Shown here: piece after piece, positions 4,691 to 21,418 of the stretch | How the letters are laid out: every line of letters starts with the position of its first letter | Numbering within the stretch: the stretch's first letter is position 1 | Source of the DNA: an uncultured bacterium | GTDB lineage: Bacteria > Patescibacteriota > Minisyncoccia > Phycocordibacterales > PALSA-1337 | Direction of reading: 5' to 3' | Assembly: GCA_903870315.1 (NCBI GenBank) | Contig: CAIQCJ010000032.1 | Coordinates: 1-45,395 of the forward strand | DNA length: 45,395 nucleotides | Notes under the pieces: model-generated | Databases searched by the model: none | The model's input: only the letters and a program-made list of their open reading frames with translations | Told to the model about the DNA's origin: nothing | Program-made: the position numbers and the translations under genes

Positions 4691-4867
4691 ATGGGAATTA
4701 TAAACTATTTCAAAGAGACAAAGTCAGAGTTGAGCCATGTCAATTGGCCTACTCGTGAGCAGACGATCAGATTTACATTGTTAGTTATACTGACATCTAT
4801 CGCTGTCGCTGCGGTCTTAGGCATCGCTGATTTCGTATTTTCTAGATTGCTGACACTCTTACCATAA
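4691..4867 (+). CDS. secE: Preprotein translocase subunit SecE (58 aa, below ORF-track cutoff)
   Basis: Hand translation: MGIINYFKETKSELSHVNWPTREQTIRFTLLVILTSIAVAAVLGIADFVFSRLLTLLP. It has the SecE signature (K.EL.KV.WPTR) plus a single TM helix and sits immediately upstream of nusG, the conserved position. Confidence 0.75.
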   Translation: MGIINYFKETKSELSHVNWPTREQTIRFTLLVILTSIAVAAVLGIADFVFSRLLTLLP

Positions 4868-4885
4868 CCTACCCCAACAATAGCT

Positions 4886-5431
4886 ATGTCAAAACAACAC
4901 ACAACAGGTGAGAGGAATTGGTATGCCATACATACATATGCTGGCTACGAAAACGCCGTTGCTCGTAACCTGAAGCAGCGTATAGAATCTCTTGGTATGG
5001 AAGGCAAGATATTTGCAGTTATAGTTCCGACTGAGAAGAAGATCAAGGTTAAGAGTAACAAGCGTGTCGAGGAGGAAGAGAAGATATATCCAGGTTACGT
5101 CCTAGTCGATATGATCGTGACCGACGACTCTTGGTACGTTGTCCGTAACACTCCTCGTGTCACAGGGTTTGTTGGTTCTGGTGTCTATCCAGTTCCACTA
5201 GAGAAGACAGAGGTAGATGCTTTGTTCGCACGTATGACCAAAGGCGGCATAGAACACACCATAGACTTATCTTCTAGTGACCTTATCAAGATAACTGACG
5301 GCCCATTCAAAGATTTTGAAGGTAAAGTCAGTGAAGTCGATACTCAGAGAGGTAAGATTAAGGTCTTGGTCTCTATGTTTGGACGAGAGACTCCAGTCGA
5401 ACTCGATTTCTTGCAAGTTAAGAAAGTTTAA
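4886..5431 (+). CDS. nusG: Transcription termination/antitermination factor NusG
   Basis: NWYAIHTYAGYENAV N-terminal NGN motif. C-terminal KOW (ITDGPFKDFEGKVSEVD...KIKVLVSMFGRETPVELDF). secE-nusG-rplK synteny. Confidence 0.9.
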   Translation: MSKQHTTGERNWYAIHTYAGYENAVARNLKQRIESLGMEGKIFAVIVPTEKKIKVKSNKRVEEEEKIYPGYVLVDMIVTDDSWYVVRNTPRVTGFVGSGVYPVPLEKTEVDALFARMTKGGIEHTIDLSSSDLIKITDGPFKDFEGKVSEVDTQRGKIKVLVSMFGRETPVELDFLQVKKV

Positions 5432-5487
5432 TGTAGGATACCCACACTAGATTCAAGTATAGATTCAGACACAAATAATACAACACC

Positions 5488-5910
5488 ATGGCAAAGAAAA
5501 TCATAAAAACAGTCAAAGTTCTAGCTCCGGCAGGAAAAGCAACTCCAGCTCCACCACTCGGACCAACCTTGGGTCAGGCCGGCGTTAATATCGGTGATTT
5601 CACCAAGAAATTCAACGATGCTACCAAGAATATGATTGGTGATATCATACCAGTCGTTATCACAGTCTACGATGACCGTACTTACAGTTTCGTCTTGAAG
5701 ACTCCTCCAGCGTCTAGTCTCATTTTGAAGGCCTTAAAGAAAGAGAAGGGTTCTGGCAAGCCAAACTTGAGCAAGATTGGTATCCTTACTAAGACACAAC
5801 TCAAGGAGATTGCTGAGAAGAAACTCCCGGATCTCAATGCTAACGACGTTGATGCTGCCATGAAGATTGTCGCTGGTACGGCTCGTTCTATGGGTGTTGA
5901 GGTTAAGTAA
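5488..5910 (+). CDS. rplK: 50S ribosomal protein L11
   Basis: [37 protein letters not shown] is the canonical L11 N-terminal domain. 140 aa. Confidence 0.95.
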
Positions 5911-5941
5911 AGTTATATTATCTATATTTGTAAAGAAAATC

Positions 5942-5962
5942 CCGGCCTAGAGCCGGTTTTTT
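5942..5962 (+). terminator. Intrinsic terminator after rplK
   Basis: CCGGC-CTAGA-GCCGG followed by TTTTTT, 32 nt after the rplK stop. Confidence 0.8.
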
Positions 5963-6043
5963 CTTTCAGAACACCCATTTTTTTTAGGTTGTATGGTTGT
6001 CTTTGTTGTGGTAAGTTTCAATATAGAAAGGTAGGTGATTTGA

Positions 6044-6544
6044 TTGGACACAATAAATGTGTTTTTGACATACCCTCATACAAACAGTCAGTCGAAGTTC
6101 TCTGTTTCCATGAAAGCTCTGCATGAACGTATCAGTGGATTGTCTGGCGTTGTTCTATTGGATAGTTGGAGACAAATATCGGGTCAACTTGGTGTAAGTC
6201 TTTCAGAGGCTTATAGTCGCGATATGGCAAATGTAAACAAAGCCGACCTTGTAGTGGCCATCTATGAAAATAGTGTAGGCAGTATTGATGATGTCGTCAT
6301 GGAGATTGTAAGGCGTTGTGAGGTCAGGAAACCAATCCGGATCTTTGTATCACATAAAGGCGCGGTTTCTCCAATCATCGAAGCTTGCATCGCTTATAAT
6401 AAAGTGCAAAAAGTCGGTCCGTTTGATGTACGAGCAGATGAGATACCTAATCCTACAAGGTATTTTCATGTAAATGGAATCTTCGAATTGGTAGCCGAAT
6501 GGGTCAACAAGAAGAATCTTATTTCAGGAGAAAATCCTGGCTGA
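6044..6544 (+). CDS. Hypothetical protein; weak resemblance to nucleoside 2-deoxyribosyltransferase-like / TIR-like Rossmannoid fold
   Basis: 166-aa ORF with TTG start 8 nt after AGGTAGG. INVFLTYPH at the N-terminus and NKADLVVAIYENSVGSIDDVVMEI...RKPIRIF resemble the aDlvvA...G...E...kP pattern of NDT-like proteins. The assignment is tentative. Confidence 0.45.
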   Translation: MDTINVFLTYPHTNSQSKFSVSMKALHERISGLSGVVLLDSWRQISGQLGVSLSEAYSRDMANVNKADLVVAIYENSVGSIDDVVMEIVRRCEVRKPIRIFVSHKGAVSPIIEACIAYNKVQKVGPFDVRADEIPNPTRYFHVNGIFELVAEWVNKKNLISGENPG

Positions 6545-6569
6545 GCCAAGATTGTCTGTCAGCTATTGC

Positions 6570-6603
6570 ATCGCCGTAGTCCAAACTCTTGGACTACGGC
6601 GAT
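6570..6603. terminator. Perfect 15-bp hairpin between convergent genes
   Basis: ATCGCCGTAGTCCAA-ACTC-TTGGACTACGGCGAT, abutting the stop of the minus-strand DHFR-like gene. There is no strong T-run on either side, so terminator function is inferred from position only. Confidence 0.45.
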
Positions 6604-6604
6604 T

Positions 6605-7108
6605 CTACTTTACATTATATTCTAGTAAAAGGGCACCACTCGTAGTCTTCTCAGAACTTACAAGTGTGAGTTTGTTGTCTAGGCCTTTATTGAATAGCTT
6701 CATACCAGCCCCAAATATCAAAGGCTCTATAGTGAGGTATAACTTATCTACAACACCACTTTCCATGAACATAGTGTAAATCTGTGATCCACCACAAATG
6801 GCGACTTCTTTGTAACCTCTATCAGCCAAGTCAGCCAACAGATCAGCTGGTGCCTTAGTGGTTGTTTCTACTCCAGCGATAGCGTCTGCACCGGTAAGCT
6901 TTTCTGGTGAATAGACGACGTTTAAGCGGTCTTTGAGCGGCTTACCAAGTGTTCTATAGGTATTTAAGCCCATAACCACAACACCTGCTCTCTTGGTGAT
7001 CTCTATAAAGCGCTTTTTGTCTTCCTTACTAGTCCAGGAAGCAGCATGTGCTGAATCTTTTCCTATAAAACCATCTGTGGTGAGTGCTGCAGAGATGAAA
7101 CAAATCAT
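6605..7108 (-). CDS. Dihydrofolate reductase family protein (DHFR / RibD C-terminal-like)
   Basis: ISAALTTDGFIG, W.SKEDKKRF, GVVVMGLNTYRTLGKPLKDRLNVVYS and ICGGSQIYTMF follow the DHFR-fold pattern. Neighbours thyA and glyA. Confidence 0.7.
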   Translation of the reverse strand: MICFISAALTTDGFIGKDSAHAASWTSKEDKKRFIEITKRAGVVVMGLNTYRTLGKPLKDRLNVVYSPEKLTGADAIAGVETTTKAPADLLADLADRGYKEVAICGGSQIYTMFMESGVVDKLYLTIEPLIFGAGMKLFNKGLDNKLTLVSSEKTTSGALLLEYNVK

Positions 7109-7208
7109 GATATTTTCAGTATATCATTTTGATACGAAAAATGTCATCTGTCATGGTTGCGAATACCAGTGGTTGGATTATACTTGAGTATACATTAACC
7201 AAAATTTT

Positions 7209-7889
7209 ATGAATTCATTTGAAATAGAAATAAAAAGTTTATTGGGTGCCGAGGATGCAGCTATTGCATTCAAAAAGAGATTGCAGTCTGCACGACCAAA
7301 TATGAAATTGGTAGGAACGGGGAAGCAGCTGAATCATTATTTCAACCTAGCAAAAGATCTGAAAGCTCTGGAGGCTTCACTTGTCGGCGTAGTTCCTGCT
7401 GATAAAAAAGATTCCTTGAAAAATATTCTTGAACACGGAAACAAAATTTCTTTGAGAACTCGTGATGCAGACGGAAAAGTTATCTTGGTCATGAAGGCCT
7501 CTGTCGGAGGTGACACTAGTGCAAACGGTGTCCAGAGAATAGAGTTCGAGGCTGTCATGAAGGGGAAGACTTTGGACGAACTAGATAAGGCTCTACTTAG
7601 CGCCGGATGTACATATCAAGCCAAATGGTCGCGCGCCAGAGAAGAGTATGCAGACGGCGATATTCATATCTGTATGGACAAAAACGCTGGTTACGGATAT
7701 TTGGTTGAATTTGAGAAGGTTGTCACAAATGAGGCCGATACCAAAAAGGCTCATGCAGAACTTATATCTTTCATGAAGGAACTTGGTGTAGAAGAGTTGC
7801 CTCAAGAGCGCATAGAGAGGATGTTTGCTTTTTACAATGCACACTGGCCAGAATATTATGGTACAGAGAAAACATTTACTATTAAATAA
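7209..7889 (+). CDS. CYTH-domain protein (CyaB/thiamine triphosphatase superfamily)
   Basis: N-terminal FEIEIKSLL carries the ExExK signature of CYTH domains. Size and beta-rich pattern are consistent. Confidence 0.65.
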   Translation: MNSFEIEIKSLLGAEDAAIAFKKRLQSARPNMKLVGTGKQLNHYFNLAKDLKALEASLVGVVPADKKDSLKNILEHGNKISLRTRDADGKVILVMKASVGGDTSANGVQRIEFEAVMKGKTLDELDKALLSAGCTYQAKWSRAREEYADGDIHICMDKNAGYGYLVEFEKVVTNEADTKKAHAELISFMKELGVEELPQERIERMFAFYNAHWPEYYGTEKTFTIK

Positions 7890-9639: not shown

Positions 9640-10848
9640 ATGAAAGACACACAAATAAAGAGACTCCTTGAGGCAGAGAAGAAACGTCAGAAAAAAGTCA
9701 TAAACCTTATTGCTTCTGAAAATTTTGTGTCTGCCGATGTTCTAGAAGCTCTCGGTTCAGAACTAACAAATAAATATGCGGAAGGATATTCTGGCAAAAG
9801 ATATTACGGTGGTAACGAGATAGTCGATAAGGTCGAAGATCTTTGTATCGAACGTGCATTGAAACTTTTTGGTCTTGATGCAAATAAGTGGCACGTCAAC
9901 GTACAGGCGCTTTCTGGTTCACCTGCGAACTTGGCTGTGTATGTCGGTGTATTGGGTTTGAAAAATGATGGCCAGCCACCAAAGATCATGGGTATGTCAC
10001 TCGATCATGGAGGCCATCTTACTCATGGTCACAAAGTTTCTGCTACTGGAAAATTTTTCACACAGGTTCCTTATGGTCTAGATCCTAAGACTGAGATGTT
10101 GAACTATGTTCAGCTTCGTGAGATAGCCATGAAAGAGAGGCCTGCTATTATCGTGGCAGGCTACACAGCATATCCACGTCGTATAGATTGGGCCAAGATG
10201 CGTGAGATTGCTGACGCTTGCGGAGCATTACTTATGGTTGATATGTCACATGTGGCCGGTCTTGTCGCTGGTGGGGCATATCCAGCACCATTTCCATACG
10301 CCGATATTGTGACCACGACTACTCATAAGACTTTGCGTGGTCCTAGGTCAGCACTTATATTTGTTCGCAAAGACGCCCGTGAACTTGATAAGAAAATAGA
10401 CAAGGCTGTTTTCCCTGGTTTGCAGGGTGGTCCTCATGAAAACCAGATTGCAGCAGTTGCTGTTGCTCTCAAGGAAGCCGCAAGTCCAGCTTTCAAGAAA
10501 TACGCACAACAGGTTGTAAAAAATGCCGCTGCTTTAGCCAATGAACTTCGTAATTGTGGCTGGAGACTTATTTCTGGTGGCACAGATTCTCATCTTATTC
10601 TCATAGATACTTGGAATAGCGGTGTGAAAAACGCCAAAGGTGCCGGCGCAGTTCCTGGAAAAGACGCCAGTGACAAACTTGAGAAAGTCGGCATCATTGT
10701 AAACAAAAATGGCATTCCATTTGATTCAAGATCACCAGTTGATCCGTCTGGTATTCGCATTGGTTCTGCCGCAGAGACTACTCATGGCAAAAAAGAGAAA
10801 GATTTTCGTGCAATAGCGAAAAAGATAGATGAGGTATTGAGGAAGTAG
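9640..10848 (+). CDS. glyA: Serine hydroxymethyltransferase
   Basis: LIASENFVS, LTNKYAEGYSGKRYYGG and TTTTHKTLRGPR (PLP-lysine motif) are diagnostic. Confidence 0.95.
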   Translation: MKDTQIKRLLEAEKKRQKKVINLIASENFVSADVLEALGSELTNKYAEGYSGKRYYGGNEIVDKVEDLCIERALKLFGLDANKWHVNVQALSGSPANLAVYVGVLGLKNDGQPPKIMGMSLDHGGHLTHGHKVSATGKFFTQVPYGLDPKTEMLNYVQLREIAMKERPAIIVAGYTAYPRRIDWAKMREIADACGALLMVDMSHVAGLVAGGAYPAPFPYADIVTTTTHKTLRGPRSALIFVRKDARELDKKIDKAVFPGLQGGPHENQIAAVAVALKEAASPAFKKYAQQVVKNAAALANELRNCGWRLISGGTDSHLILIDTWNSGVKNAKGAGAVPGKDASDKLEKVGIIVNKNGIPFDSRSPVDPSGIRIGSAAETTHGKKEKDFRAIAKKIDEVLRK

Positions 10849-10908
10849 GGATATTTGATTTTAGCCAATTTGGCGGATTTTTCGCTAACTTTCTGCTACA
10901 ATCATCCC

Positions 10909-12735
10909 ATGAAAGACGAAATCATAAAGATATTGCAAAAAACCTTTGAGCCACTTGGTATATCGGATATTTCGGTCGCCTTAGATTTTCCAGAAAATGC
11001 CGAATATGGTGACTATACTAGCAATGTGGCCATGATAAACGCCAAGAGGCTTGGTATGAAGCCTGTTGAATTGGCGACAAAGATCGTGGCAGATTTCGAC
11101 AAACTTGTAGCCAAGGCATCTTTGAAAGGTCTTATGAAATCAGTCAGTGTGGCTGGACCTGGATTTATTAATTTTACTTTGACCGCAGAAGCGGTTTCGA
11201 AGAATGTTCAGGAGATCTCAAGAGAGTTGAATGGCCCCAAAGGCTCAAATAGCTTAAAAGGCCAAATTTCAAATATCGGCGCTGGTAAAAAAGTTTTGAT
11301 AGAGTACTCGTCTCCGAATATTGCCAAACCTTTTACGGTCGGACATTTGAGGTCAACTATCATAGGTGATTCTATTGCGCGTATTTTGAGTGCTACTGGA
11401 TATTCTGTTATTCGTGACAACCATCTTGGTGACTGGGGAACACAGTTTGGGAAGCTTTTGGTGGCGATAGAAAAGTGGGGGGATGAATTTGGCGGACTCG
11501 ATGGCATCAAAAAGAGTGAAAATCCTATCAAAATACTTGTTGATCTTTACGTGAAGTTCCATGATGAGGTTGCGATTATGGAGGATTCTGAAGACGAAAA
11601 ATTGAAAACAGAAGCAGAAGAACTCGTTACTTTTGCTCGTGCCAAATCTAAAATATTGGAATCTGGTAAGGATCCGATAATTTCTGAAATTTGGAAGGTC
11701 TGCGTAGATCTTTCCATGCATGAGTTTGCCCTTATTTATACGAGACTCGGTGTGTCTTTTGATCCAAAGAGGGGAGATACGCAGATTGGTGAAAGTTTCT
11801 TTGTGACCCCAGATAAGATCAACCCAGTCAGAGATGCCTTGAATGCCAAAAATCTTTTGAAAGAAAGTGAGGGTGCCAAAGTTGTATTCTTTGGTAGTGA
11901 AGATCCAAAGTCATGGAAACTCCCTCCGCTTATAGTAGAGAAAAGTGACGGTACATCCATATATGCTACTCGTGATTTGGCCGCAGATTTATATCGAATC
12001 AATACATACGGTAAAGGTCTAATACTCATAAATGAGGTTGGTGCTGAACAAAATCTTTACTTCAAACAACTTATAGAAACTGAGACTATGCTTGGCTGGT
12101 TTACGAAAGGTCAGAGACTTCATATCGCCCACGGACTTTACAGGTTCAAGGATGGCAAGATGTCTACAAGAAAAGGTAAGGTCATCTGGCTAGGTGATAT
12201 TCTGGATGAAGCAGTTACTCGTGCTTCCAAGATAAATGCCGATAGTGCCAATGATGTGGCTGTGGCGGCTATCAAGTTCAATGATCTTAAGCGCGACAGT
12301 ATACAAGATATAGTTTTCGATTGGGATGAAATGATGAGTATGACCGGTGACTCTGGACCATATCTACAATATTCATGCGTGCGTGCCAAAGCCGTCATAG
12401 AGAAAGCGAAAGGGCTCGGCATAGTCGCGCATATTGGCCCTGGATCCGGTGAAGGTAGTACACGCCCAAAAATCGCCCAAATCGATCTTCTTGAAAGATA
12501 CCTGATCCGTTTTCAGTCGGTTGTCGAATTCGCCGGCGCATCATATAGACCGAATGTCATTGCCAACTATCTCATAAATCTGGCGGCGCTTTTCAACAGC
12601 TTCTATTCCCAAGTAATGATCGCTGATGCGAAAGACCCTATGGCAGCTTACAAAGTTGCTGTCACGCAGGCTTTTGCCATGACCATGGAGAGGGGATTAG
12701 ATCTATTGGGTATAAAAGTTCCGAAGAAGATGTAA
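10909..12735 (+). CDS. argS: Arginyl-tRNA synthetase
   Basis: EYSSPNIAKPFTVGHLRSTIIGD (HIGH-region variant), DGTSIYATRDLA, MSTRKG (KMSKS-like) and a DALR anticodon-binding C-terminus. The track ORF starts at TTG 10855; I prefer ATG 10909 (MKDEIIKILQ). Confidence 0.9.
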   Translation: MKDEIIKILQKTFEPLGISDISVALDFPENAEYGDYTSNVAMINAKRLGMKPVELATKIVADFDKLVAKASLKGLMKSVSVAGPGFINFTLTAEAVSKNVQEISRELNGPKGSNSLKGQISNIGAGKKVLIEYSSPNIAKPFTVGHLRSTIIGDSIARILSATGYSVIRDNHLGDWGTQFGKLLVAIEKWGDEFGGLDGIKKSENPIKILVDLYVKFHDEVAIMEDSEDEKLKTEAEELVTFARAKSKILESGKDPIISEIWKVCVDLSMHEFALIYTRLGVSFDPKRGDTQIGESFFVTPDKINPVRDALNAKNLLKESEGAKVVFFGSEDPKSWKLPPLIVEKSDGTSIYATRDLAADLYRINTYGKGLILINEVGAEQNLYFKQLIETETMLGWFTKGQRLHIAHGLYRFKDGKMSTRKGKVIWLGDILDEAVTRASKINADSANDVAVAAIKFNDLKRDSIQDIVFDWDEMMSMTGDSGPYLQYSCVRAKAVIEKAKGLGIVAHIGPGSGEGSTRPKIAQIDLLERYLIRFQSVVEFAGASYRPNVIANYLINLAALFNSFYSQVMIADAKDPMAAYKVAVTQAFAMTMERGLDLLGIKVPKKM

Positions 12736-12755
12736 TAAATTCTCCGGCGTGGTTT

Positions 12756-13022
12756 TCAGTACATATCGTCGTGTGATCCGATACCGTATAGGGTTATTGT
12801 TGTCGCGTCAAAAGAAAAAACTATTCTGTGGTCATAAGATATTCTACATGCATATAATTCTTTGAGAGACCCATGTAGTTTATGAGTTTTAAGTAATGGA
12901 TTGGAGACATCGCTCTCTAACATTTTAAGAGTTTTCGACCATCTTGTTTTTAAGTGCGCGTTCTTCCTAAGAAAATCACGCGACATTTTGTTGAATGCGG
13001 GAGTGGCGAATATTGTCCTCAT
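12756..13022 (-). CDS. RelE/StbE-family type II toxin
   Basis: 88 aa. LKTHKLHGSLKELYACRISYDHRIVFSFDATTITLYGIGSHDDMY matches the RelE/StbE/YafQ C-terminal pattern. Preceded by a small partner ORF. Confidence 0.7.
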   Translation of the reverse strand: MRTIFATPAFNKMSRDFLRKNAHLKTRWSKTLKMLESDVSNPLLKTHKLHGSLKELYACRISYDHRIVFSFDATTITLYGIGSHDDMY

Positions 13023-13037
13023 GGATCAAGAGATAGG

Positions 13038-13220
13038 CTAAAGACCTTTAGTAATGTCGGCAATAAGCAAATTTGCTGACGAGTATTTTCTGACTTTACC
13101 AGTTTGTGCTTCCCAAACAGATTGAAGGATCTCAAGTTCAAAGAATCTTTTTCGCAGATCGCGCATGATACTAGCAACCTCTTTTGAGTTCTTTTTTATC
13201 TGAAATTTAGTGATTTTCAT
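13038..13220 (-). CDS. Putative antitoxin partner of the RelE-like toxin
   Basis: 60-70 aa ORF ending 15 nt upstream of the toxin start on the same strand. No motif recognised; the call is positional. The start could be 13250 or 13220. Confidence 0.45.
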   Translation of the reverse strand: MKITKFQIKKNSKEVASIMRDLRKRFFELEILQSVWEAQTGKVRKYSSANLLIADITKGL

Positions 13221-13256
13221 GTATTTAGTATAGCGTAGGTGGGTGGTCATGCCTAC

Positions 13257-13286
13257 TTGACATTTAGATACTAAGTAGTGTACAAT
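13257..13286 (+). promoter_or_regulatory. Sigma70-like promoter upstream of the DGR-target-like gene
   Basis: TTGACA (13257-13262), 18-nt spacer, TACAAT (13281-13286). This would give a ~105-nt 5' UTR before the ATG at 13398. Confidence 0.45.
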
Positions 13287-13397
13287 ATCGCTCAGCGAGG
13301 TAGGTCTTTGTCAGTGCAATGTTAGGGGATTCGTCCCAGTGCGTGGTCGTAGTAAAACAAACCAAAACCGCTCGAAAGAGCAGAAAGGAAAGCGCGT

Positions 13398-14186
13398 ATG
13401 AAAAATGCGAGCGTTCCCAAAGTAGCAGAAGTGGTTCAGAGAGAGATCTCTGTGCAATGGCAAGCACAGATTAGTGCCAACCTTATCGTGGGGTCAATAC
13501 CGATCCTAAAACAACTGGGAAGATTCCCGCAATTGGCTCAGAAGCTTGCAGCCAAGCCGGAAGCTTGGACAGAGTTCCTGATGTCGGCATTGCCGAAGCG
13601 GATGGTTATCGGCCACAATGATGCGGAATATTGGGACCGGTATTATCAAAATGAGTTTGGCATCAAGGGCTCATTTGAGGGTCTCGAAATCCCAGCCGCT
13701 CCAGCTTATCCAGCATGGCTTGTTGTGATGCATGAACAGATCTCCAATCGGTGCAATCCGATAATGGAGGTTTGCAAAAAGCATTACCCGAAGTACTGGC
13801 AGTACACGAGCGATCTCGGCGCTTCGATCGTCAGACATGATCGGAGTGGGACATACGGAATCTGGGTCGCGGCTTCGCCGAGCGCTGAATTCGGAAATGT
13901 GGATGGTAAAAACTTGTCTAGCCAGGATGTTTGGGACAGGGGCATTATTACCACAACTCTGCCGGAGCGTCTGATTCTTGGTGATACGTTCTATTTGAAA
14001 AACCAAGATCATCTGGACAAAAATAAAATCAACCTCTGTCCAGGTTCGCGCAATTCCGACGGCAATGTGCCGAGTGTGAATCGGCACAACGACGACAATG
14101 TCAAGGTGAACTACTGGAATCCGCAGAATGCCGATGACAATCTGCGGTTCCGTCTGGAAATTTCTCGCAACAAGGGGCTTTCATAG
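13398..14186 (+). CDS. Putative DGR target (variable) protein with C-terminal CLec-like variable module
   Basis: 262-aa ORF, visibly more G+C-rich than its neighbours. The C-terminus CPGSRNSDGNVPSVNRHNDDNVKVNYWNPQNADDNLRFRL resembles the ...NRNNNPNNRNNNLGFR ends of DGR variable proteins. It lies next to Avd-like and DGR-RT-like ORFs. Confidence 0.5.
   Translation: MKNASVPKVAEVVQREISVQWQAQISANLIVGSIPILKQLGRFPQLAQKLAAKPEAWTEFLMSALPKRMVIGHNDAEYWDRYYQNEFGIKGSFEGLEIPAAPAYPAWLVVMHEQISNRCNPIMEVCKKHYPKYWQYTSDLGASIVRHDRSGTYGIWVAASPSAEFGNVDGKNLSSQDVWDRGIITTTLPERLILGDTFYLKNQDHLDKNKINLCPGSRNSDGNVPSVNRHNDDNVKVNYWNPQNADDNLRFRLEISRNKGLS
14052..14153 (+). other. Candidate DGR variable region (VR)
   Basis: Among these 34 codons, 9 are Asn (AAT/AAC) and 5 are Asp (GAC/GAT), plus CAC, TAC, TCC and GCC. 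That mix is what adenine-specific mutagenesis of AAY template codons would produce. No matching template repeat was found in this window. Confidence 0.35.
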
Positions 14187-14194
14187 CCCCTTTT
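14174..14194. terminator. Hairpin plus T-run at the 3' end of the target gene
   Basis: GGGGC-TTTCATA-GCCCC then TTTTGTG. The stop codon TAG (14184-14186) lies in the loop/stem. The position (immediately 3' of the VR-like module) mirrors the hairpin found downstream of DGR VRs. It also faces the convergent Avd-like ORF. Confidence 0.65.
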
Positions 14195-14197
14195 GTG

Positions 14198-14452
14198 TCA
14201 TATGTTTTGGCTACGCGCCACATAGTTTATCCAATTGGTCGCTTCTTTGGATATTTCAAAAAGTTTGGTAGAAAGACGTATATAAGTTTTATCATCGATG
14301 ATAAGTAATTCATTTTCTGTCCGAATCAGATTTTGTAGAACACCGATTTTTACACGCAATCTTTCCAGTGTCGGCTTCTTTAGGATTTTTATTTGAAATG
14401 ACCCTTCTATAGCCAGAGACAAAATGTTTATGCACAGCCGTTCTATTTCCAT
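14198..14452 (-). CDS. Avd-like four-helix-bundle protein (short, possibly 5'-truncated)
   Basis: 84 aa, all-helical. LERLRVKIGVLQNLIRTENELLIIDDKTYIRLSTKLFEISKEATNWINYV matches the C-terminal half of the DGR accessory variability determinant / 23S-IVS four-helix-bundle family. Typical members are longer. Confidence 0.55.
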   Translation of the reverse strand: MEIERLCINILSLAIEGSFQIKILKKPTLERLRVKIGVLQNLIRTENELLIIDDKTYIRLSTKLFEISKEATNWINYVARSQNI

Positions 14453-14527
14453 ATGTATTCCCAGCTTGTTGCTTTTCGATAGTTTTTGGCCGGTGTTGTA
14501 AATGTCTTTGTGTAGTATTCTTATACT

Positions 14528-15019
14528 ATGGATAATTGGGACAATTTGTTTGAACTTATAAAAAGGATTATTTTTTCATTCGAAAAGACCGGTGGAAAAG
14601 GCTTGCCACTTGGCAATGTTACTAGTCAGCTTTTCTCCGATATTTATCTCAATGAGCTGGATCAGTTTGTAAAACACGAACTAAAAGCAAAGTACTATAT
14701 TAGATATTGTGACGATTTTGTAATTTTAAATGACTCTTTGGATTACCTTGATTATTGTTTAGATAAGATTAGGGATTTTTGTTCGGAAAATCTGTTGGTA
14801 AATTTACATCCAGATAAAGTAGAGATACGTAAACTGAAAACCGGAGTAGATTTTCTTGGATATGTTTCCTTGCCACATTATAGAGTCTTGCGTACCAAAA
14901 CAAAGAGGAGGATGTTAAATAGAGTTTCGACAAAAAATGTGGCCTCATATTTAGGAATGTTGAAGCATTGCAAAGGAGAGAAAATAGAGGAACAAATTAG
15001 CAGATTATTTTTTGATTAA
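14528..15019 (+). pseudogene. N-terminally truncated DGR-type reverse transcriptase (motifs 4-7 and thumb only)
   Basis: GLPLGNVTSQLFSDIYLNELD carries the [I/L]GxxxSQ motif-4 hallmark of DGR RTs. YIRYCDDFVIL is the YxDD catalytic motif. Only 163 aa; an in-frame TAG at 14513 blocks upstream extension, and no RT motifs 1-3 appear in any upstream frame. Confidence 0.7.
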
Positions 15020-15040
15020 AAAATGCTAGAATAAGCCATT

Positions 15041-18000
15041 ATGAGTTCACATAGTGAGCGCGAAGAAAAGATGCTGGCCTTCTGGAAAGAGAAGGGTATT
15101 TTTGAGAAAACACTGGAGAAACCTTCTCCTAAAGGCGAATTTACTTTCTATGATGGCCCGCCATTTGCTACGGGCACACCTCATTACGGGCACTTGCTGG
15201 CTGGTACCATGAAGGATGTCATTCCGCGCTGGAAAACCATGCAGGGATATCACGTGGCTCGCCGATGGGGCTGGGATTGTCATGGTTTGCCAGTTGAGAA
15301 TCTCATAGAAAAGGAGCTCGGACTTAAGTCCAAGAAAGATATTTTTGAATATGGCATTGATAAGTTCAATGACGCTGCTCGTGCCAGTGTCATGCGTTAT
15401 GCTGACGAATGGCGCAAAGTTGTTCCACGTTTGGGGCGTTTCGTCGATATGGAGGATGATTATCGTACGATGGATGCCTCGTATACCGAAAGTGTCTGGT
15501 GGATATTCAAGAATCTCTATGACAAAGGTCTGATCTATGAAGGTTTCAAATCCATGAATCTTTGTCCACGTTGTGAGACGACTTTGTCGAACTTTGAAGT
15601 GGCACAGGGTTACAAGGACATAACAGATATTTCTGTATATGTGAAGTTTAGGATACCTGACTGGTACAAAGTTTTCTGGTCAAATGGTGGAAATGACCCG
15701 AAAAGCCAAAATAGAAATGTACAAGGTGTAAATGGAGCGCAGATAGCCACTTATCTTATAGCTTGGACGACGACGCCGTGGACTTTACCAGGGAATGTGG
15801 CTTTGGCGGTAAATCCAGATATTGATTATGTCAGGGTTAATTTAAGCACAATAACCAAAGATGATTCGGATACTATTGGCTCAGTAAGCGAAACATACTT
15901 GATAGCGGAATCACGTCTTGCGGTCATCTTGAAAGATAAACAATATGAGATTATCGAGAAGATAAAAGGTTCAGATCTTGTCGGTCTTTCATATGAACCT
16001 ATTTTCGATTGTTATCACAACGACAAAACCTTGAAGGATCGTGGAAATGGTTGGAAGATATATGGTGCAGATTTCGTGACAATAGAAGATGGTACTGGTA
16101 TCGTCCACATCGCTCCAGCATTTGGGGCAGATGACTACAGTTTGCTCCTCAAATACAATTTGCCTTTAGTACAACACGTGGCTGTCGACGGTACATTCAA
16201 GAAAGAGTTTACATCTAGCCCAGAGACTTCAGTCTTTTCTGGTCTACATGTGAAGCCTAAGGATACATCTGAAGACAAAAATGCTCACCAAAGTACTGAT
16301 ATTGAAGTTATAAAATGGTTGGCTCATAGTGGAAAACTTTTTGATAAAGAAAAGATTATACACTCATACCCACATTGTTGGCGCTGTGAGACTCCTCTTA
16401 TTAACTACGCCTCTTCTTCTTGGTTTGTGAAAGTCACCGATATCAAGGATAAACTGGTGGCAGCCAATAAGAAGATAACTTGGGTTCCAGAAGAACTTGG
16501 CGAAGGTCGTTTTGGTAATTGGTTAGAAGGTGCGCGTGACTGGGCTATATCTCGCTCACGTTTCTGGGGAGCACCGATACCTGTATGGAGAGAAGAAGGT
16601 GCAAGTGGTACGCAAGGTCCAAGCAATTTACATGTCATAGGATCTATAGCAGACTTCAAGAAATATTCTCATACAAAGAATACTTATTACGTGATACGTC
16701 ATGGAGAATCCGAAGGTAATGTGAAAGGCATATTGAGCACAGATATGAAGATAGTTCACCATCTGACAGACAAGGGTAGGGAGCAAGCAGCATCTGCCAC
16801 GGAAAACCTTAAAGGTATAGAGTTTGATCATGTATTTGTATCTCCGTTTGCACGTACTCAGGAGACTTACGAAGTTTTGGCTTCGAAGTTAGGTTGGGAC
16901 AAGAGTAAAATGATAACAGACGATCGTATAAGAGAGCTTGGAGGTGGTATATGGAATGGACGACTTATATCTGATTTCTTGGCTGAGTTTGAACATTCTG
17001 ACAGGTTCGAGAATGCTCCAGAAGGTGGAGAGAATTATACCGATATAAAAAAGAGGATGGGCGATTTCTTGTATGACATAGAAAACAGATACCAAGGTGA
17101 GACTATACTTATAGTTACTCACGAGACGCCGGCTTGGTTATTGTTCTCTGCGGCTATTGGAGCCGATAAAGCCTCATCTTTGGCCATGCGTGTCAGCGAC
17201 AGGAAGACTGGTGGTGATTTCTTGAAAAATGCCGAAGTGAAGAAGTTGGATTTTGTGCCTATTCCTCACAATAAAAACTATGAACTCGATCTACATCGTC
17301 CTTTCATAGATGAAATAGGATTGCGCGTTGATAATGGCAATAAACTCACTCGTGTGTCTGATGTTTTCGATTGTTGGTTTGAATCAGGCTCTATGCCATG
17401 GAGCTCAAATCACTATCCTTTCGATGGGGATATTGCTTATCCAGCTGACTTCATTGCTGAAGGTCAAGATCAGACCCGTGGCTGGTTCTACACCATGTTG
17501 GTCCTAGGTGTAGGCTTGTTTGGTACATCTCCATACAAGAAAGTCTTGGCCAATGGTCTTGTCCTAGCAGAAGATGGTGAAAAGATGTCCAAATCCAAGA
17601 AGAATTATCCTGATCCGATGCTTATAATAGATAAATACAGTGCAGATGCATTGCGCTATTATTTACTTTCTTCACCAGTAGTACGTGCACAAGACCTGTG
17701 TTTTAGTGAGAAAGGTGTAGATGAAGTGACGAAGAAGATTATCAATCGTATTCTAAATGTAGTCTCTTTCTATGAGATGTATGCAGGCGAAGGTGTAAAT
17801 GGGAGTACGCAAGATGAAAGTAAAATTACGAGCGAATCATGTGTCCGAAGCAAGAATGTTCTGGATCTCTGGATTAAGGCACGTCTAAATGAGACAATTT
17901 CTCAAATCACCGGTAGCTTAGAATCAGGAGAACTTGATCGCGCCTCGAGACCATTTATGGATCTTATAGATGATCTATCAACTTGGTATCTGCGTCGATC

Positions 18001-18781
18001 CCGCGACCGCTTCAAAGGAGATGATGTCTCAGACAAGAGCTCAGCCTTGGCAACTACAAAGTTTGTCCTCATAGAGACAGCTAAACTCATGGCCCCATTT
18101 ATGCCTTTTTTGGCAGAGGATATATATATCAGAGTTGGTAGAAACATCACCAGCAATAATTCAAATGCAGATATACTAGAAAGTGTTCATCTAGATTCTT
18201 GGCCAAAAGCCACGAAAGTTAATCAGCATCTTATAGATGATATGAAGTTGGTACGTTCAGTCGCTTCACAAGGACTGGAGGCTCGTATGACGGCTAAGAT
18301 CAATGTCCGTCAGCCACTTCAGTCTCTGAAGGTTGAACTGATCCAAGAGAAGATGTGGTATAGATCAGAAAGACAACTTGGTCCAGAATTTACGTCTATC
18401 ATTGCGGATGAAGTCAATGTCAAAGAGGTTCTATCTTCCATAAAACTGGTAAGGACGACCAGTGCAGGATCTAACAAAGCGAATACCATAGTCAGTAGTG
18501 TTGAGCTCGATACTTCTATCACCATAACATTGAGAGAAGAAGGTATGGTTCGTGAACTCATACGTGCCATACAGGATCTAAGAAAGACCAAAGGCCTTAC
18601 TATAAATGACAAAGCTACTATTATCATTGAGACCGACAAGACTGGTCACGGATTTATCGAAAAGAATAAAGATGTGATATCTCGTGCGACGCTGTTGAAG
18701 ATGATTGAGTGGGGAAGTGTTGATAGTTCAATAGATATCCTGAAAATAGGTGAGATGTATATTAAGATTGATTTGAGATAA
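15041..18781 (+). CDS. ileS: Isoleucyl-tRNA synthetase, type 2 (eukaryote-like), with an internal histidine-phosphatase domain
   Basis: FYDGPPFATGTPHYGHLLAG (HIGH), WTTTPWTLPGN (editing domain), WAISRSRFWGAPIPVW, DLHRPFIDEI, DCWFESGSMP and KMSKSKKNYPDP (KMSKS). 1246 aa, about 200 aa longer than usual because of the insert at 16685-17260. Confidence 0.95.
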   Translation: MSSHSEREEKMLAFWKEKGIFEKTLEKPSPKGEFTFYDGPPFATGTPHYGHLLAGTMKDVIPRWKTMQGYHVARRWGWDCHGLPVENLIEKELGLKSKKDIFEYGIDKFNDAARASVMRYADEWRKVVPRLGRFVDMEDDYRTMDASYTESVWWIFKNLYDKGLIYEGFKSMNLCPRCETTLSNFEVAQGYKDITDISVYVKFRIPDWYKVFWSNGGNDPKSQNRNVQGVNGAQIATYLIAWTTTPWTLPGNVALAVNPDIDYVRVNLSTITKDDSDTIGSVSETYLIAESRLAVILKDKQYEIIEKIKGSDLVGLSYEPIFDCYHNDKTLKDRGNGWKIYGADFVTIEDGTGIVHIAPAFGADDYSLLLKYNLPLVQHVAVDGTFKKEFTSSPETSVFSGLHVKPKDTSEDKNAHQSTDIEVIKWLAHSGKLFDKEKIIHSYPHCWRCETPLINYASSSWFVKVTDIKDKLVAANKKITWVPEELGEGRFGNWLEGARDWAISRSRFWGAPIPVWREEGASGTQGPSNLHVIGSIADFKKYSHTKNTYYVIRHGESEGNVKGILSTDMKIVHHLTDKGREQAASATENLKGIEFDHVFVSPFARTQETYEVLASKLGWDKSKMITDDRIRELGGGIWNGRLISDFLAEFEHSDRFENAPEGGENYTDIKKRMGDFLYDIENRYQGETILIVTHETPAWLLFSAAIGADKASSLAMRVSDRKTGGDFLKNAEVKKLDFVPIPHNKNYELDLHRPFIDEIGLRVDNGNKLTRVSDVFDCWFESGSMPWSSNHYPFDGDIAYPADFIAEGQDQTRGWFYTMLVLGVGLFGTSPYKKVLANGLVLAEDGEKMSKSKKNYPDPMLIIDKYSADALRYYLLSSPVVRAQDLCFSEKGVDEVTKKIINRILNVVSFYEMYAGEGVNGSTQDESKITSESCVRSKNVLDLWIKARLNETISQITGSLESGELDRASRPFMDLIDDLSTWYLRRSRDRFKGDDVSDKSSALATTKFVLIETAKLMAPFMPFLAEDIYIRVGRNITSNNSNADILESVHLDSWPKATKVNQHLIDDMKLVRSVASQGLEARMTAKINVRQPLQSLKVELIQEKMWYRSERQLGPEFTSIIADEVNVKEVLSSIKLVRTTSAGSNKANTIVSSVELDTSITITLREEGMVRELIRAIQDLRKTKGLTINDKATIIIETDKTGHGFIEKNKDVISRATLLKMIEWGSVDSSIDILKIGEMYIKIDLR
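16685..17260 (+). other. Histidine phosphatase (phosphoglycerate-mutase-like) domain inserted in IleRS
   Basis: YYVIRHGESEGN matches the PGAM-family phosphohistidine signature (h-x-R-H-G-E-x-x-x-N). It is followed by FVSPFARTQET (second Arg), RELGGGIWNG (acid Glu) and LIVTHETPAW (second His). It lies between IleRS motifs PIPVW (W516) and DLHRP (D750). Confidence 0.75.
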
Positions 18782-18792
18782 TCTTTTGTAAA

Positions 18793-19437
18793 ATGCATGC
18801 CATATACACTACGCCAGGATTTATCATTGGCTCTGGTCAATACGGAGAAGCTGGTAAGTTGATATCTATTTTTACCAGAGATCTTGGCCTGGTAAAGGTT
18901 GTTGCTCAAGGTATTCGCTTCGAAAAATCAAAATTACGCTACCACACCAAGGACTATTCTTTTGGGATTTTCTCTTTGGTGCGTGGAAAAGAAGTCTGGC
19001 GTCTTACTAGCGCGCAAGCATTGCTGGCATCATCATTATCCACACCTATTTCATCACAAAATATCTTTGTAACTAATAACGAAGCTTTCTGGGCGCGGAT
19101 AGCACTACTTCTACGCAGATTTTTGCAAGGTGAAGAAGCAAACGAAAAACTCTTCGAGACTATTTCAGCTTGTAATATTTTTTTGGTCTCTTTTGGTCAA
19201 ACTGGAGATGTCGACGGTCTTAGCTCAGTTCCGGATAATGATTCTCATATGGAAATAGTAGAATCACTACTTGTTATACGTATAATGCATACCCTCGGTT
19301 ATATAGGCGATGACAAGGATATACACGCAGTTATATATTCCAATGATTTTACACATGGAATTATCGAATCTGCTTCACGTAAGAAACACCTGATAAACCA
19401 ACATATCAACAAGGCGCTGAAGGAATCACACCTTTGA
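18793..19437 (+). CDS. recO: DNA repair protein RecO (short form, no zinc finger seen)
   Basis: N-terminal OB-fold pattern GFIIGSGQYGEAGKLISIFTRDLGLVKVVAQGIRFEKSKLR resembles RecO (v...dygE.dki..lfT...G...v.a+Ga+k.kS+). recO-glyQS neighbourhood, as in Firmicutes. Confidence 0.6.
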   Translation: MHAIYTTPGFIIGSGQYGEAGKLISIFTRDLGLVKVVAQGIRFEKSKLRYHTKDYSFGIFSLVRGKEVWRLTSAQALLASSLSTPISSQNIFVTNNEAFWARIALLLRRFLQGEEANEKLFETISACNIFLVSFGQTGDVDGLSSVPDNDSHMEIVESLLVIRIMHTLGYIGDDKDIHAVIYSNDFTHGIIESASRKKHLINQHINKALKESHL

Positions 19438-19480
19438 GGCATTTCCGCTATTGTTGTTTTCATAGTAAAATGATTGGCAA

Positions 19481-21418
19481 ATGCCTCCAGAAGAGAAAAG
19501 CAAAATAGAAGACTTGAAGAAAGCGCTTTATTCTAGGTCGGCGCCAGATATCAAGACTCGTCGCAAGTTACGCTTCCACGATGATATCTCTACTGTACAG
19601 AAGTCTTGGCAGCGAGCTCCAGAAGTTAATGTTCAAGAGGATTTAAATAATAGATACGAAGATCATTCTATGTCTTTTTTCACTAAACTACTTATAGGCT
19701 CGATTGTCTTTTGCTTGATAGCCGTTAGTGCTGGAGCCTATCTCTTTTTCAATGGTAAAAATCTTGTCTCAGCCAACAATATAGATGTCGCCATAACTGG
19801 CCCCGTCTCCATACCTGGAGGTGAGCCTGTGTCTTTCGATGTTGGTATTACGAACAACAACAGTATAGATTTGCAGTTGGTAGACATGTCTGTATCTTTC
19901 CCGGCCGGTACAACAGATCCTAGCAATCCCTCTCAGGAATTGAAGAAATACGTGAACATGATAGGTGATATGACTTCTGGTAAGTCTGTCCACGAGACTG
20001 TGAAAGCAATCATGTTTGGTGAAGAAAATACTCAAAAACAAGTCACCGTTTCTTTGACTTATAGTATCAAGGGTTCCTCGGCCGTTTTCACCAAAGACAA
20101 GACTTATCAGGTTTTGATCAACTCATCACCAATCATTGTCGATGTATCTTCGTACAAAGAAGTTACATCTGGCCAAGAATTTGACCTGAAAGTGAATATC
20201 AAATCAAACTCTGGACAGACATTGAAGAATATATTACTCAATGCGAGCTACCCTTTTGGCTTTGTGTTCATGTCGTCAAACCTAAAGCCGACTTCTGTCG
20301 ACAATACGGTCTGGAGGATAGGAGACATACCACCGGGTAGTCAGGATAGTGTGACTATCCATGGAAAGTTACAGGGCGAGAACAGTGATGTGAGGTCGTT
20401 TAGATTCCTAGTTGGAGCCCAGAGTTCTACGAATCTGAATCAGATCGGCACTCAATATATGTCAATCCAACAAGATATTTCAATCCAAAAGCCTTTCATA
20501 TCTCTAGGTTTGACTATCAACAACAATCCAGACTCAACTGACTTTGTCGGTGGATACAATTCTCCACACCAGATATCGGTTTCGTGGTTCAACAATCTAA
20601 CCGTCCCAGTTACCAACGCCGTTATAACGATCCATCTTTCCGGCAATGCTTATGACAAAGCCTCCATATCTCCAGGTGAAGGATATTACCGTTCGACTAC
20701 CGATGATGTGGTTTGGAATCCACAGACTACACCGGCTCTAGCTTCGATCGCTGCTGGAGATACTGGTAGTGTTTTGTTCTCTATAATTCCTAGAGACCTC
20801 GGTAACAGTTCAGACCCCTTAGTAAATCCAGATCTTACTTTAACAGCAAGTGTATCAGGGGATAGGGTACAAGAATCACAAGTACCAGATTCTCTTACAG
20901 CCATTGCTACTAGAAGTATACGCATACCATCACCAGTATCTCTGTCTGGTCGTATCATAAGATCTTTTGGACCATTCCTAAATATAGGACCGGTACCCCC
21001 ACAAGCTGAACAGCAGACTACTTATACTGTTGTCTGGACCGTTGATAATGTCTCCAACAACATAAGTAACGCTAAAGTCACAGCTAGTCTTCCGGCCTAT
21101 GTGAGGTGGTCAGGAAATGTTAGCCCAAATACCGAGTCAGTATCTTTCGATAATAATTCTGGAACGGTATCTTGGAATATTGGTAGTATGAACTCACGAT
21201 CTAATAATTCTTCCGGACGTAGATCGGTCGCATTTCAGATATCTATGTTGCCTGGAACAGACCTAATCGGATCTTCACCGAGTCTTGTAGGTGCAGCTAC
21301 ATTTACCGCAACAGATAACTATACTAACTCCCAGTTGCAGAGCAACCAAGATCCACTTCTAACCAGTTTCAGTACAGATCCAGCTTTCAAGCTCAATGAC
21401 GGCATTATTGTGAAGTAA
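19481..21418 (+). CDS. Membrane-anchored extracellular protein with repeated Ig-like/CARDB-like beta modules
   Basis: Charged N-terminus and a single TM (FFTKLLIGSIVFCLIAVSAGAYLFF). About 550 aa of Ser/Thr/Asn/Val-rich beta-type sequence follows, with recurring P.G....V.F.I.N.G motifs. No enzymatic motif. Confidence 0.55.
   Translation: MPPEEKSKIEDLKKALYSRSAPDIKTRRKLRFHDDISTVQKSWQRAPEVNVQEDLNNRYEDHSMSFFTKLLIGSIVFCLIAVSAGAYLFFNGKNLVSANNIDVAITGPVSIPGGEPVSFDVGITNNNSIDLQLVDMSVSFPAGTTDPSNPSQELKKYVNMIGDMTSGKSVHETVKAIMFGEENTQKQVTVSLTYSIKGSSAVFTKDKTYQVLINSSPIIVDVSSYKEVTSGQEFDLKVNIKSNSGQTLKNILLNASYPFGFVFMSSNLKPTSVDNTVWRIGDIPPGSQDSVTIHGKLQGENSDVRSFRFLVGAQSSTNLNQIGTQYMSIQQDISIQKPFISLGLTINNNPDSTDFVGGYNSPHQISVSWFNNLTVPVTNAVITIHLSGNAYDKASISPGEGYYRSTTDDVVWNPQTTPALASIAAGDTGSVLFSIIPRDLGNSSDPLVNPDLTLTASVSGDRVQESQVPDSLTAIATRSIRIPSPVSLSGRIIRSFGPFLNIGPVPPQAEQQTTYTVVWTVDNVSNNISNAKVTASLPAYVRWSGNVSPNTESVSFDNNSGTVSWNIGSMNSRSNNSSGRRSVAFQISMLPGTDLIGSSPSLVGAATFTATDNYTNSQLQSNQDPLLTSFSTDPAFKLNDGIIVK

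Follow-up and report, generated by a model that had tools for sequence, protein, structure and literature searches.

A probable fossil of a candidate phyla radiation diversity-generating retroelement, with a fused variable–template repeat, between argS and ileS

Truncated avd and reverse transcriptase genes beside an Asn-rich gene end

We analysed a 45,395-nt stretch of DNA from an uncultured Patescibacteriota bacterium (NCBI GenBank assembly GCA_903870315.1, contig CAIQCJ010000032.1), referred to here as the window, in which parts of a diversity-generating retroelement (DGR) lie between argS and ileS. These parts are a target gene whose C-terminal segment is homologous to the diversified variable regions (VRs) of related targets, a single repeat that continues into sequence typical of the template region (TR), a hairpin, and truncated genes for Avd and the reverse transcriptase (RT) (Table 1). 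An earlier note, made from the letters of this stretch alone, had read the gene end as a VR open to diversification in trans, by a DGR located in another part of the genome. The cognate RT and avd in fact adjoin the target as truncated genes, directly 3' of its open reading frame (ORF), where the note had missed them.

Table 1. Coordinates of the retroelement features in the window and in the intact cassette of its relative L002
Sequence	Feature	Position	Strand	Description
Window	Promoter-like site TTGACA-18 nt-TACAAT	13257..13286	+	11/12 consensus matches; upstream of target gene
Window	DGR target gene	13398..14186	+	262 aa; scaffold, residues 1 to ~213; former VR region now template-like
Window	Single VR::TR hybrid repeat	14043..14162	+	5' context of the target gene; body and 3' end TR-like
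Window	TR-type (donor-type) boundary GAAATTTCTCGC	14157..14168	+	Position 14158 is A here and C in all genuine VRs of the family
Window	TR-flank hairpin, then T-run	14166..14197	+	Outer stem CGCAA/TTGTG, inner stem AAGGGGC/GCCCCTT
Window	avd remnant	14198..14542	-	Homologous to L002 Avd residues 8-118 (77% identity); start codon lost
Window	RT remnant	14528..15019	+	163 aa; original ATG, LGNVTSQ and YCDD kept; fingers region and motif A gone
Window	In-frame deletion junction (~500 nt)	14536..14546		RT codons ~4-170 and, on the opposite strand, first ~8 avd codons removed
L002	Target gene	4862..5629		
L002	VR	5506..5623		
L002	TR	5886..6003		
L002	Hairpin			Between TR and avd
L002	avd	6058..6414	-	118 aa
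L002	RT	6379..7380	+	333 aa

The target protein ends in ...CPGSRNSDGNVPSVNRHNDDNVKVNYWNPQNADDNLRFRLEISRNKGLS, and the corresponding end of the gene is rich in Asn and Asp codons. The 34 codons at 14052-14153 include 9 AAY and 5 GAY, together with CAC, TAC, TCC and GCC, compared with 11 AAY and 10 GAY among the other 218 codons of the gene (Fisher p = 1.6e-5 for Asn plus Asp, p = 3e-4 for Asn alone); the enrichment is real and chance is excluded. The end of the 262-aa ORF, these codon counts and the core stem of the hairpin (GGGGC at 14174-14178, GCCCC at 14186-14190) are as the earlier note had described them, and the enrichment it pointed to is significant. Guanine-plus-cytosine (GC) content is 49.3% in the target ORF and 52% in the 34 end codons, against 42.1% in the window, and related target genes likewise lie 6-11 GC points above their own loci. 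Position 13257, given in the earlier note as the start, belongs to a promoter-like site and is not the start of the ORF; the site is a consensus match only, and the count of such sites in the region is not above that in shuffled sequence. Within the 5' leader of the target, positions 13368-13383 form a terminator-like hairpin on the minus strand (CTGCTCTTTCGAGCGG followed by a T-rich tail), and on the plus strand the same positions form a GAAA-loop hairpin directly before the ribosome-binding site.

Both genes downstream of the target are incomplete. The avd remnant matches the bAvd family (PF22296) over profile positions 33-106 of 107, with an E-value of 5e-4 that does not reach the Pfam cut-off, and it also matches the NCBIfam family DivGenRetAVD. 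Its frame is open yet has no ATG, GTG or TTG ahead of an internal Met, and the longest ORF consists of the 84 aa that begin at this internal ATG (14198-14452). The window thus holds no complete Avd, the start codon and the first ~8 codons having been deleted. The RT remnant covers only positions 111-203 of the 205 in the RVT_1 profile and aligns at 73% identity to residues 176-329 of the 333-residue RT of L002, a syntenic relative with an intact DGR. It begins with the original ATG and then resumes at the equivalent of L002 RT residue ~171-176. Motif A, which in L002 reads KCDLRKFFDSID (~residues 150-160), lies within the part deleted from the window RT, and no complete DGR-type RT catalytic domain is left; no other RT was found in the 45-kb window. 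The 5' ends of avd and RT overlap by 36 nt in L002, and because this overlap is between genes on opposite strands, one deletion hits both the RT and the start of avd.

A single repeat with a donor-type end

The genes of L002 stand in the order argS–x–target–…–ileS, and its DGR is laid out as a target with a C-terminal VR, a 260-nt spacer, the TR, the hairpin, avd on the minus strand and the RT. The window target is syntenic with the L002 target and shares 75% DNA identity and 72% protein identity with it. In blastn and MAFFT alignments, window positions 13380-14162 follow the L002 target through the VR, positions 14043-14536 are contiguous with the L002 TR, its 3' flank, the hairpin and avd, and the window repeat itself aligns to both the L002 VR and the L002 TR. 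The spacer between these two L002 repeats (5624-5883, 260 nt) has no counterpart in the window. The earlier note had proposed a search for a near-repeat that would be the TR; run on the 45-kb window as a repeat search and as a permissive blastn search, it found no second copy of 13950-14200. A degenerate core pattern search of the window recovered the conserved 3' core of the repeat in one copy, of the TR type, and a VR-type flank was not found in the window.

Seven related lineages have the TR/VR pair that is reduced to a single copy in the window. Mismatches between the two repeats fall at TR adenines in 8/8 cases in L002, 14/15 in L006/L013, 23/24 in L008-10/L015, 13/13 in L016, 9/9 in L018, 22/22 in L021/22 and 28/30 in L023, or 117 of 121 when the seven lineages are pooled. 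The annotated relatives are Candidatus Taylorbacteria (Parcubacteria/Patescibacteria), and this is a genuine DGR family of the candidate phyla radiation (CPR) type. Its target, Avd and RT are homologous to those of the CPR DGRs described as the 'CPR set' (Wu et al. 2018, PMC5758913) and as clade 2 (Roux et al. 2021, PMC8144416), and its intact members resemble those elements in their compact avd-TR-RT cassette with no other accessory gene, their C-terminal VR and their adenine-specific mutagenesis. Unlike those DGRs, the window combines a lone fused repeat with an RT that has lost its N-terminal half and an avd that has lost its start. L002 also carries a second avd(-)/RT(+) pair upstream of argS (806-2167; also in L003, 412-1773), the RT of which is 45% identical to the first; the L002 contig ends there, and the pair has no counterpart in the window.

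The adenine content of the window repeat is that of a template. We counted consensus template-adenine sites as the 27 alignment columns with A in at least six of the seven TRs. The bona fide TRs keep A at 26-27 of these sites, genuine VRs at 5-20, and the window, like an independent sister assembly (L001), at 26. Two other fused repeats described below (L005 and L014) keep A at 17-18 sites. Because A is kept at 26/27 sites as in TRs, unlike VRs, the Asn codons of the window appear to be unmutated template, and most of its Asp codons would likewise come from the template instead of adenine mutagenesis; the TRs, too, carry most of the GAY codons. The proposal in the earlier note that the AAY and GAY codons represent the spectrum of mutagenesis is therefore not borne out, and its identification of a DGR variable-region C-terminus holds in part: the gene is a member of a true family of DGR targets and its end is homologous to VRs, but this copy is itself template-like. 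A separate case within the family is the L018 TR (1059-1174), which is adenine-depleted, with A at only 14/27 sites, yet differs from its VR solely at adenines (9/9); this combination suggests that the L018 TR was once overwritten by a mutagenised copy.

The 3' boundary of the window repeat is also of the template type. In all seven intact lineages the VR is followed by G-C-AAT and the TR by G-A-AATTTCTC(G/A)(C/T), and on the 3' side of the VR lies a VR-specific flank, usually with its own inverted repeat. The window reads G-A-AAT, then TTCTCGC and the TR hairpin; it has neither a recipient-type end, of the kind that resembles an initiation of mutagenic homing (IMH) site, nor a VR-type flank. 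Within the TR 3' flank, GAAATTTCTC is invariant in 9/9 aligned sequences and the full GAAATTTCTCGC is present in 7/9.

The hairpin that follows folds at -18.3 kcal/mol (RNAfold, 14166-14197) and contains the target stop codon TAG (14184-14186). Homologous two-tier hairpins fold in nine lineages (-12 to -19.5 kcal/mol) with compensatory changes in both tiers: the inner stem occurs as GGGGC/GCCCC, GGGC/GCCC, GGAGC/GCTCC, GGAC/GTCC and GGAGT/ACTCC, and the outer stem as CGCAA/TTGCG, CGCAA/TTGTG and CACAA/TTGTG. This conservation is read from per-sequence folds and not from a covariation count, MAFFT having left the arms out of register. The stem is followed by TTTTGTGT, and the hairpin with its T-run abuts the convergent avd. 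It is probably the terminator of the TR RNA; a consensus terminator scan did not flag it, and an Rfam scan of 12700-15100 gave no match. The earlier note had likened the hairpin to those found downstream of known VRs. It follows the TR, however, and the whole 3' flank aligns to the TR flank and avd of L002.

Bordetella phage BPP-1 offers a comparison for this arrangement. In its DGR (mtd, avd, TR, brt), the donor and recipient repeats are reported to differ in their 3' ends (IMH versus IMH*), with an inverted repeat after the recipient (PMC5758913), and RT-Avd is reported to require a noncoding stretch that lies downstream of the TR (PMC6182149). The family described here is similar in its boundary, where one base differs between VR (C) and TR (A), and in its conserved, structured TR 3' flank. 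By analogy with the phage (PMC6182149), the hairpin may be part of a segment downstream of the TR that is recognised by RT and Avd. The family differs from BPP-1 in its gene order and in the orientation of avd, and it is known from sequence alone. Its TR flank is a short hairpin with a T-run abutting a convergent avd, and the window copy has only the donor-type end.

Probable decay of the element and competing explanations

Taken with the gene remnants, these observations make it very probable that the locus is the fossil of a CPR-type DGR between argS and ileS, a decayed element that is neither active nor a new system. Among the features of a functional DGR, the window retains only the homology of its target. 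The ancestral layout would have been that of L002, with the target and its VR, a 260-nt spacer, the TR with its flank and hairpin, avd on the minus strand, and the RT. The spacer and one repeat copy have been deleted in the window lineage, and we infer that this happened when the VR and TR, direct repeats of ~118 nt, recombined through homologous recombination or slippage between them. The target would then have ended in unmutated, Asn-rich template and read through into the TR flank; its C-terminus is indeed ...LRFRLEISRNKGLS where the family has ...LRFRLAIV. A ~500-nt in-frame deletion, which we would place second in the order of events, took RT codons ~4-170, motif A included, along with the avd start. 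Since no donor/recipient pair, active RT or full Avd remains, mutagenic homing is impossible in cis, and the sequence is therefore frozen. Because the body of the window repeat is TR-like, the crossover would lie near the 5' end of the repeat, or else the VR would have been almost unmutated when the repeats fused.

Fusions of this type are found elsewhere in the family. In L005 and in L014/L017 a VR body runs directly into a TR-type flank, with the hairpin and avd beyond it, and a second repeat is missing; the L014-type fused protein occurs on at least 24 contigs from varied samples and assemblers (MEGAHIT k141, JGI and others). L021/L022 are close intact relatives of the L014 lineage, and the nearest relatives of each fused gene end in the VR type. 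Because these relatives carry normal VR-type ends, the three fusions are independent, and VR::TR fusion has had three or more origins among about a dozen lineages. The VR bodies of L005 and L014 are heavily mutated up to the last variable codon, their crossover lies in the short invariant 3' block, and both fusions retain an apparently intact avd and RT. Fusion of VR and TR is the expected outcome of recombination between direct repeats and adds modestly to what is known, without making a new kind of system; in the literature searched we found no description of natural VR–TR fusion as a route of DGR decay. Beyond passive recombination, it might also be an intrinsic failure mode of so compact an element, in which complementary DNA begun within the TR flank connects that flank with the VR, although we give this idea less credence than the new scaffold considered in the next section.

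The sister assembly L001 (ENA ERZ19032152) is independent of ours and matches window positions 9979-20352 with 10 substitutions in 10.3 kb. Both the fusion and the RT/avd deletion are found in it too. A C->A change at window position 13585 turns target codon 63 from TCG to TAG, and because of this stop only a 194-aa product is called in L001; the L001 target is a pseudogene or is N-terminally truncated. The 789-nt target holds six of these 10 substitutions (binomial p = 3e-5), and 14020-14150 holds four (p = 5e-6). Two of these four are adjacent A/T changes on the immediate 5' side of the repeat, and a third hits a position occupied by T or C in TRs; DGR activity as the source of the differences was rejected on these grounds. 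Relaxed selection after the death of the DGR fits the L001 stop codon, but the density of substitutions still seems to exceed the synonymous rate of the genes on either side.

Other members of the family have lost their DGR in different ways. In L011 (9914-10882; also L012 and L020) the target carries a heavily mutated VR, its flank is of the VR type, and only a 60-aa C-terminal remnant of the RT follows; the target sits between rplB and rpsS in a ribosomal protein operon. As in the window, the DGR of L011, L012 and L020 is dead and the target gene survives; unlike in the window, the TR, avd and most of the RT were lost by a downstream deletion, and the VR was kept. L007 likewise has a dead DGR and a surviving target, with no avd or RT match at all. 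The route of decay in the window differs from all of these, its VR body and spacer having been lost through VR–TR fusion.

Some observations weigh against decay by fusion as we have set it out. Codon 246 is GAT in the window and AAY in all TRs, and codon 230 is CAC in the window, TAC in L001 and AAY in most TRs; the first, and perhaps the second, could be a VR-type A-to-N change. The comparison rests on the TRs of relatives, the nearest intact one sharing just 72% protein identity; this leaves the crossover point unplaced and a slight chance that the body of the repeat is a lightly mutated VR instead of template. A second RT and avd may also act in trans from the rest of the genome, as L002 carries a second cassette.

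An error of assembly would be another source of the fusion. VR and TR are near-identical direct repeats ~380 nt apart, a classic setting for collapse, and an assembler might have jumped from one to the other and dropped the 260-nt spacer; that the fusion is known from assembled sequence tells against our own interpretation as well. Such an error would have to account for the same join in two independent assemblies that differ by 10 substitutions, and for its occurrence together with a separate lesion, the deletion that inactivates RT and avd, and in L001 with a target stop codon as well. The fusion of the L014 lineage, moreover, appears in MEGAHIT k141, JGI and other assemblies, with k greater than the repeat length. 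We consider an artefact improbable.

That the gene end is a live VR on which a DGR in another part of the genome acts in trans, as the earlier note had proposed, seems to us highly unlikely. The family is one of true DGR targets, extra cassettes exist in the group, as the two RT/avd pairs of L002 show, and the first base of codon 230, A in most TRs, is C in the window and T in L001. Yet 26 of the 27 conserved template adenines are unmutated, and the boundary and flank (G-A-AAT, TTCTCGC, TR hairpin) are those of a donor and not of a recipient (G-C-AAT), with no recipient-type flank or inverted repeat of its own downstream. The absence of another RT from the 45-kb window and the placement of the four differences from L001 in this part of the gene, of which two lie 5' of the repeat and one falls on a non-adenine site, also speak against it.

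It is just as hard to credit that the fused repeat still templates a remote VR with RT and Avd supplied in trans. In its favour, the adenines and the invariant segment of GAAATTTCTCGC plus hairpin are intact, and L005 and L014 combine the fusion with an avd and RT that look intact. Against it, motif A is missing from the neighbouring RT and a start codon from the neighbouring avd, the repeat has no partner in the window, and the sister strain is gathering inactivating mutations in the very gene that bears the repeat.

The target family, its neighbours and the meaning of the locus

The target protein has 24 close homologues, and a profile of the family recovered 1846 representatives of 50%-identity clusters (E<=1e-3). 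Family members are nearly all ~240 aa long, and the profile match runs to the C-terminus, where invariant residues (C214, S217, R218, G222, V224, V227, V237, W240, P242 and LRFR) alternate with hypervariable positions. A census of TR-type tail patterns in 150 distant members proved too loose for use. The window target protein has no Pfam or NCBIfam family match, in keeping with reports that most CPR targets are without a recognisable domain (PMC5758913, PMC8144416). Nothing convincing, whether FGE-sulfatase, DUF1566 or another Pfam family, was found in the 24 close members and 10 distant relatives, and the family profile found nothing below E=1 among PDB sequences.

An AlphaFold model of the target built with 24 sequences reached a mean predicted local distance difference test (pLDDT) score of 83.9 and a predicted template modelling (pTM) score of 0.77; a first run with 13 sequences (pLDDT 57) was discarded together with its Foldseek matches, which were meaningless. 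Foldseek searches of the model against PDB and BFVD gave nothing at E<=0.001 (best E 0.14). The top PDB match had a TM score of 0.12 and every match was at or below 0.25, and among the best 50 matches listed per library (PDB, BFVD) there was no entry for a C-type lectin (CLec) fold, Mtd, TvpA or FGE. The earlier note had seen a resemblance to CLec-fold targets in the end of the protein and had suggested predicting its structure. The target does share with CLec-fold variable proteins (Mtd, TvpA and the FGE-sulfatase type) a C-terminal VR, the interleaving of scaffold and variable positions and an ...N.NLxFR-like end, but it differs from them in having no structural or sequence-profile match. 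The predicted model thus does not support a CLec assignment; since Foldseek can miss a very divergent CLec, the result lowers this claim without abolishing it. Novel CLec folds have been predicted for CPR targets by Roux et al. (PMC8144416), and most CPR VRs were left unclassified by Wu et al. (PMC5758913). We put forward only tentatively, and with some doubt, that the target family is a VR-displaying scaffold of neither C-type lectin nor immunoglobulin type.

On the argS side of the target lies a RelE/YafQ-like toxin gene (12756-13022, minus strand, 88 aa), with a 70-aa ORF upstream of it (13038-13250, minus strand) that is a possible antitoxin. Between argS and its target L002 has an unrelated 158-aa ORF instead, and a YafQ/RelB pair is likewise found beside the fused DGR of the L014 type (L027-L036). 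On the other side, ileS (15041-18781, 1246 aa) contains an inserted PGAM-like His_Phos_1 domain (residues 550-716, window 16688-17188, E = 4.5e-33); a histidine-phosphatase insertion is likewise recorded for the ileS of L002.

The target family is large and has no Pfam annotation, and with a confident model that finds no structural neighbour it may merit structural study. For scans of genomes, the locus means that an AAY-rich, VR-like gene end without a partner repeat can be the template itself; in this family the flank and a single boundary base (A versus C) distinguish template from diversified copy. Together with its intact syntenic relative, the locus shows how a DGR dies: the two repeats with which the element works double as a recombination hazard, and their fusion resets the target to an Asn-rich template.

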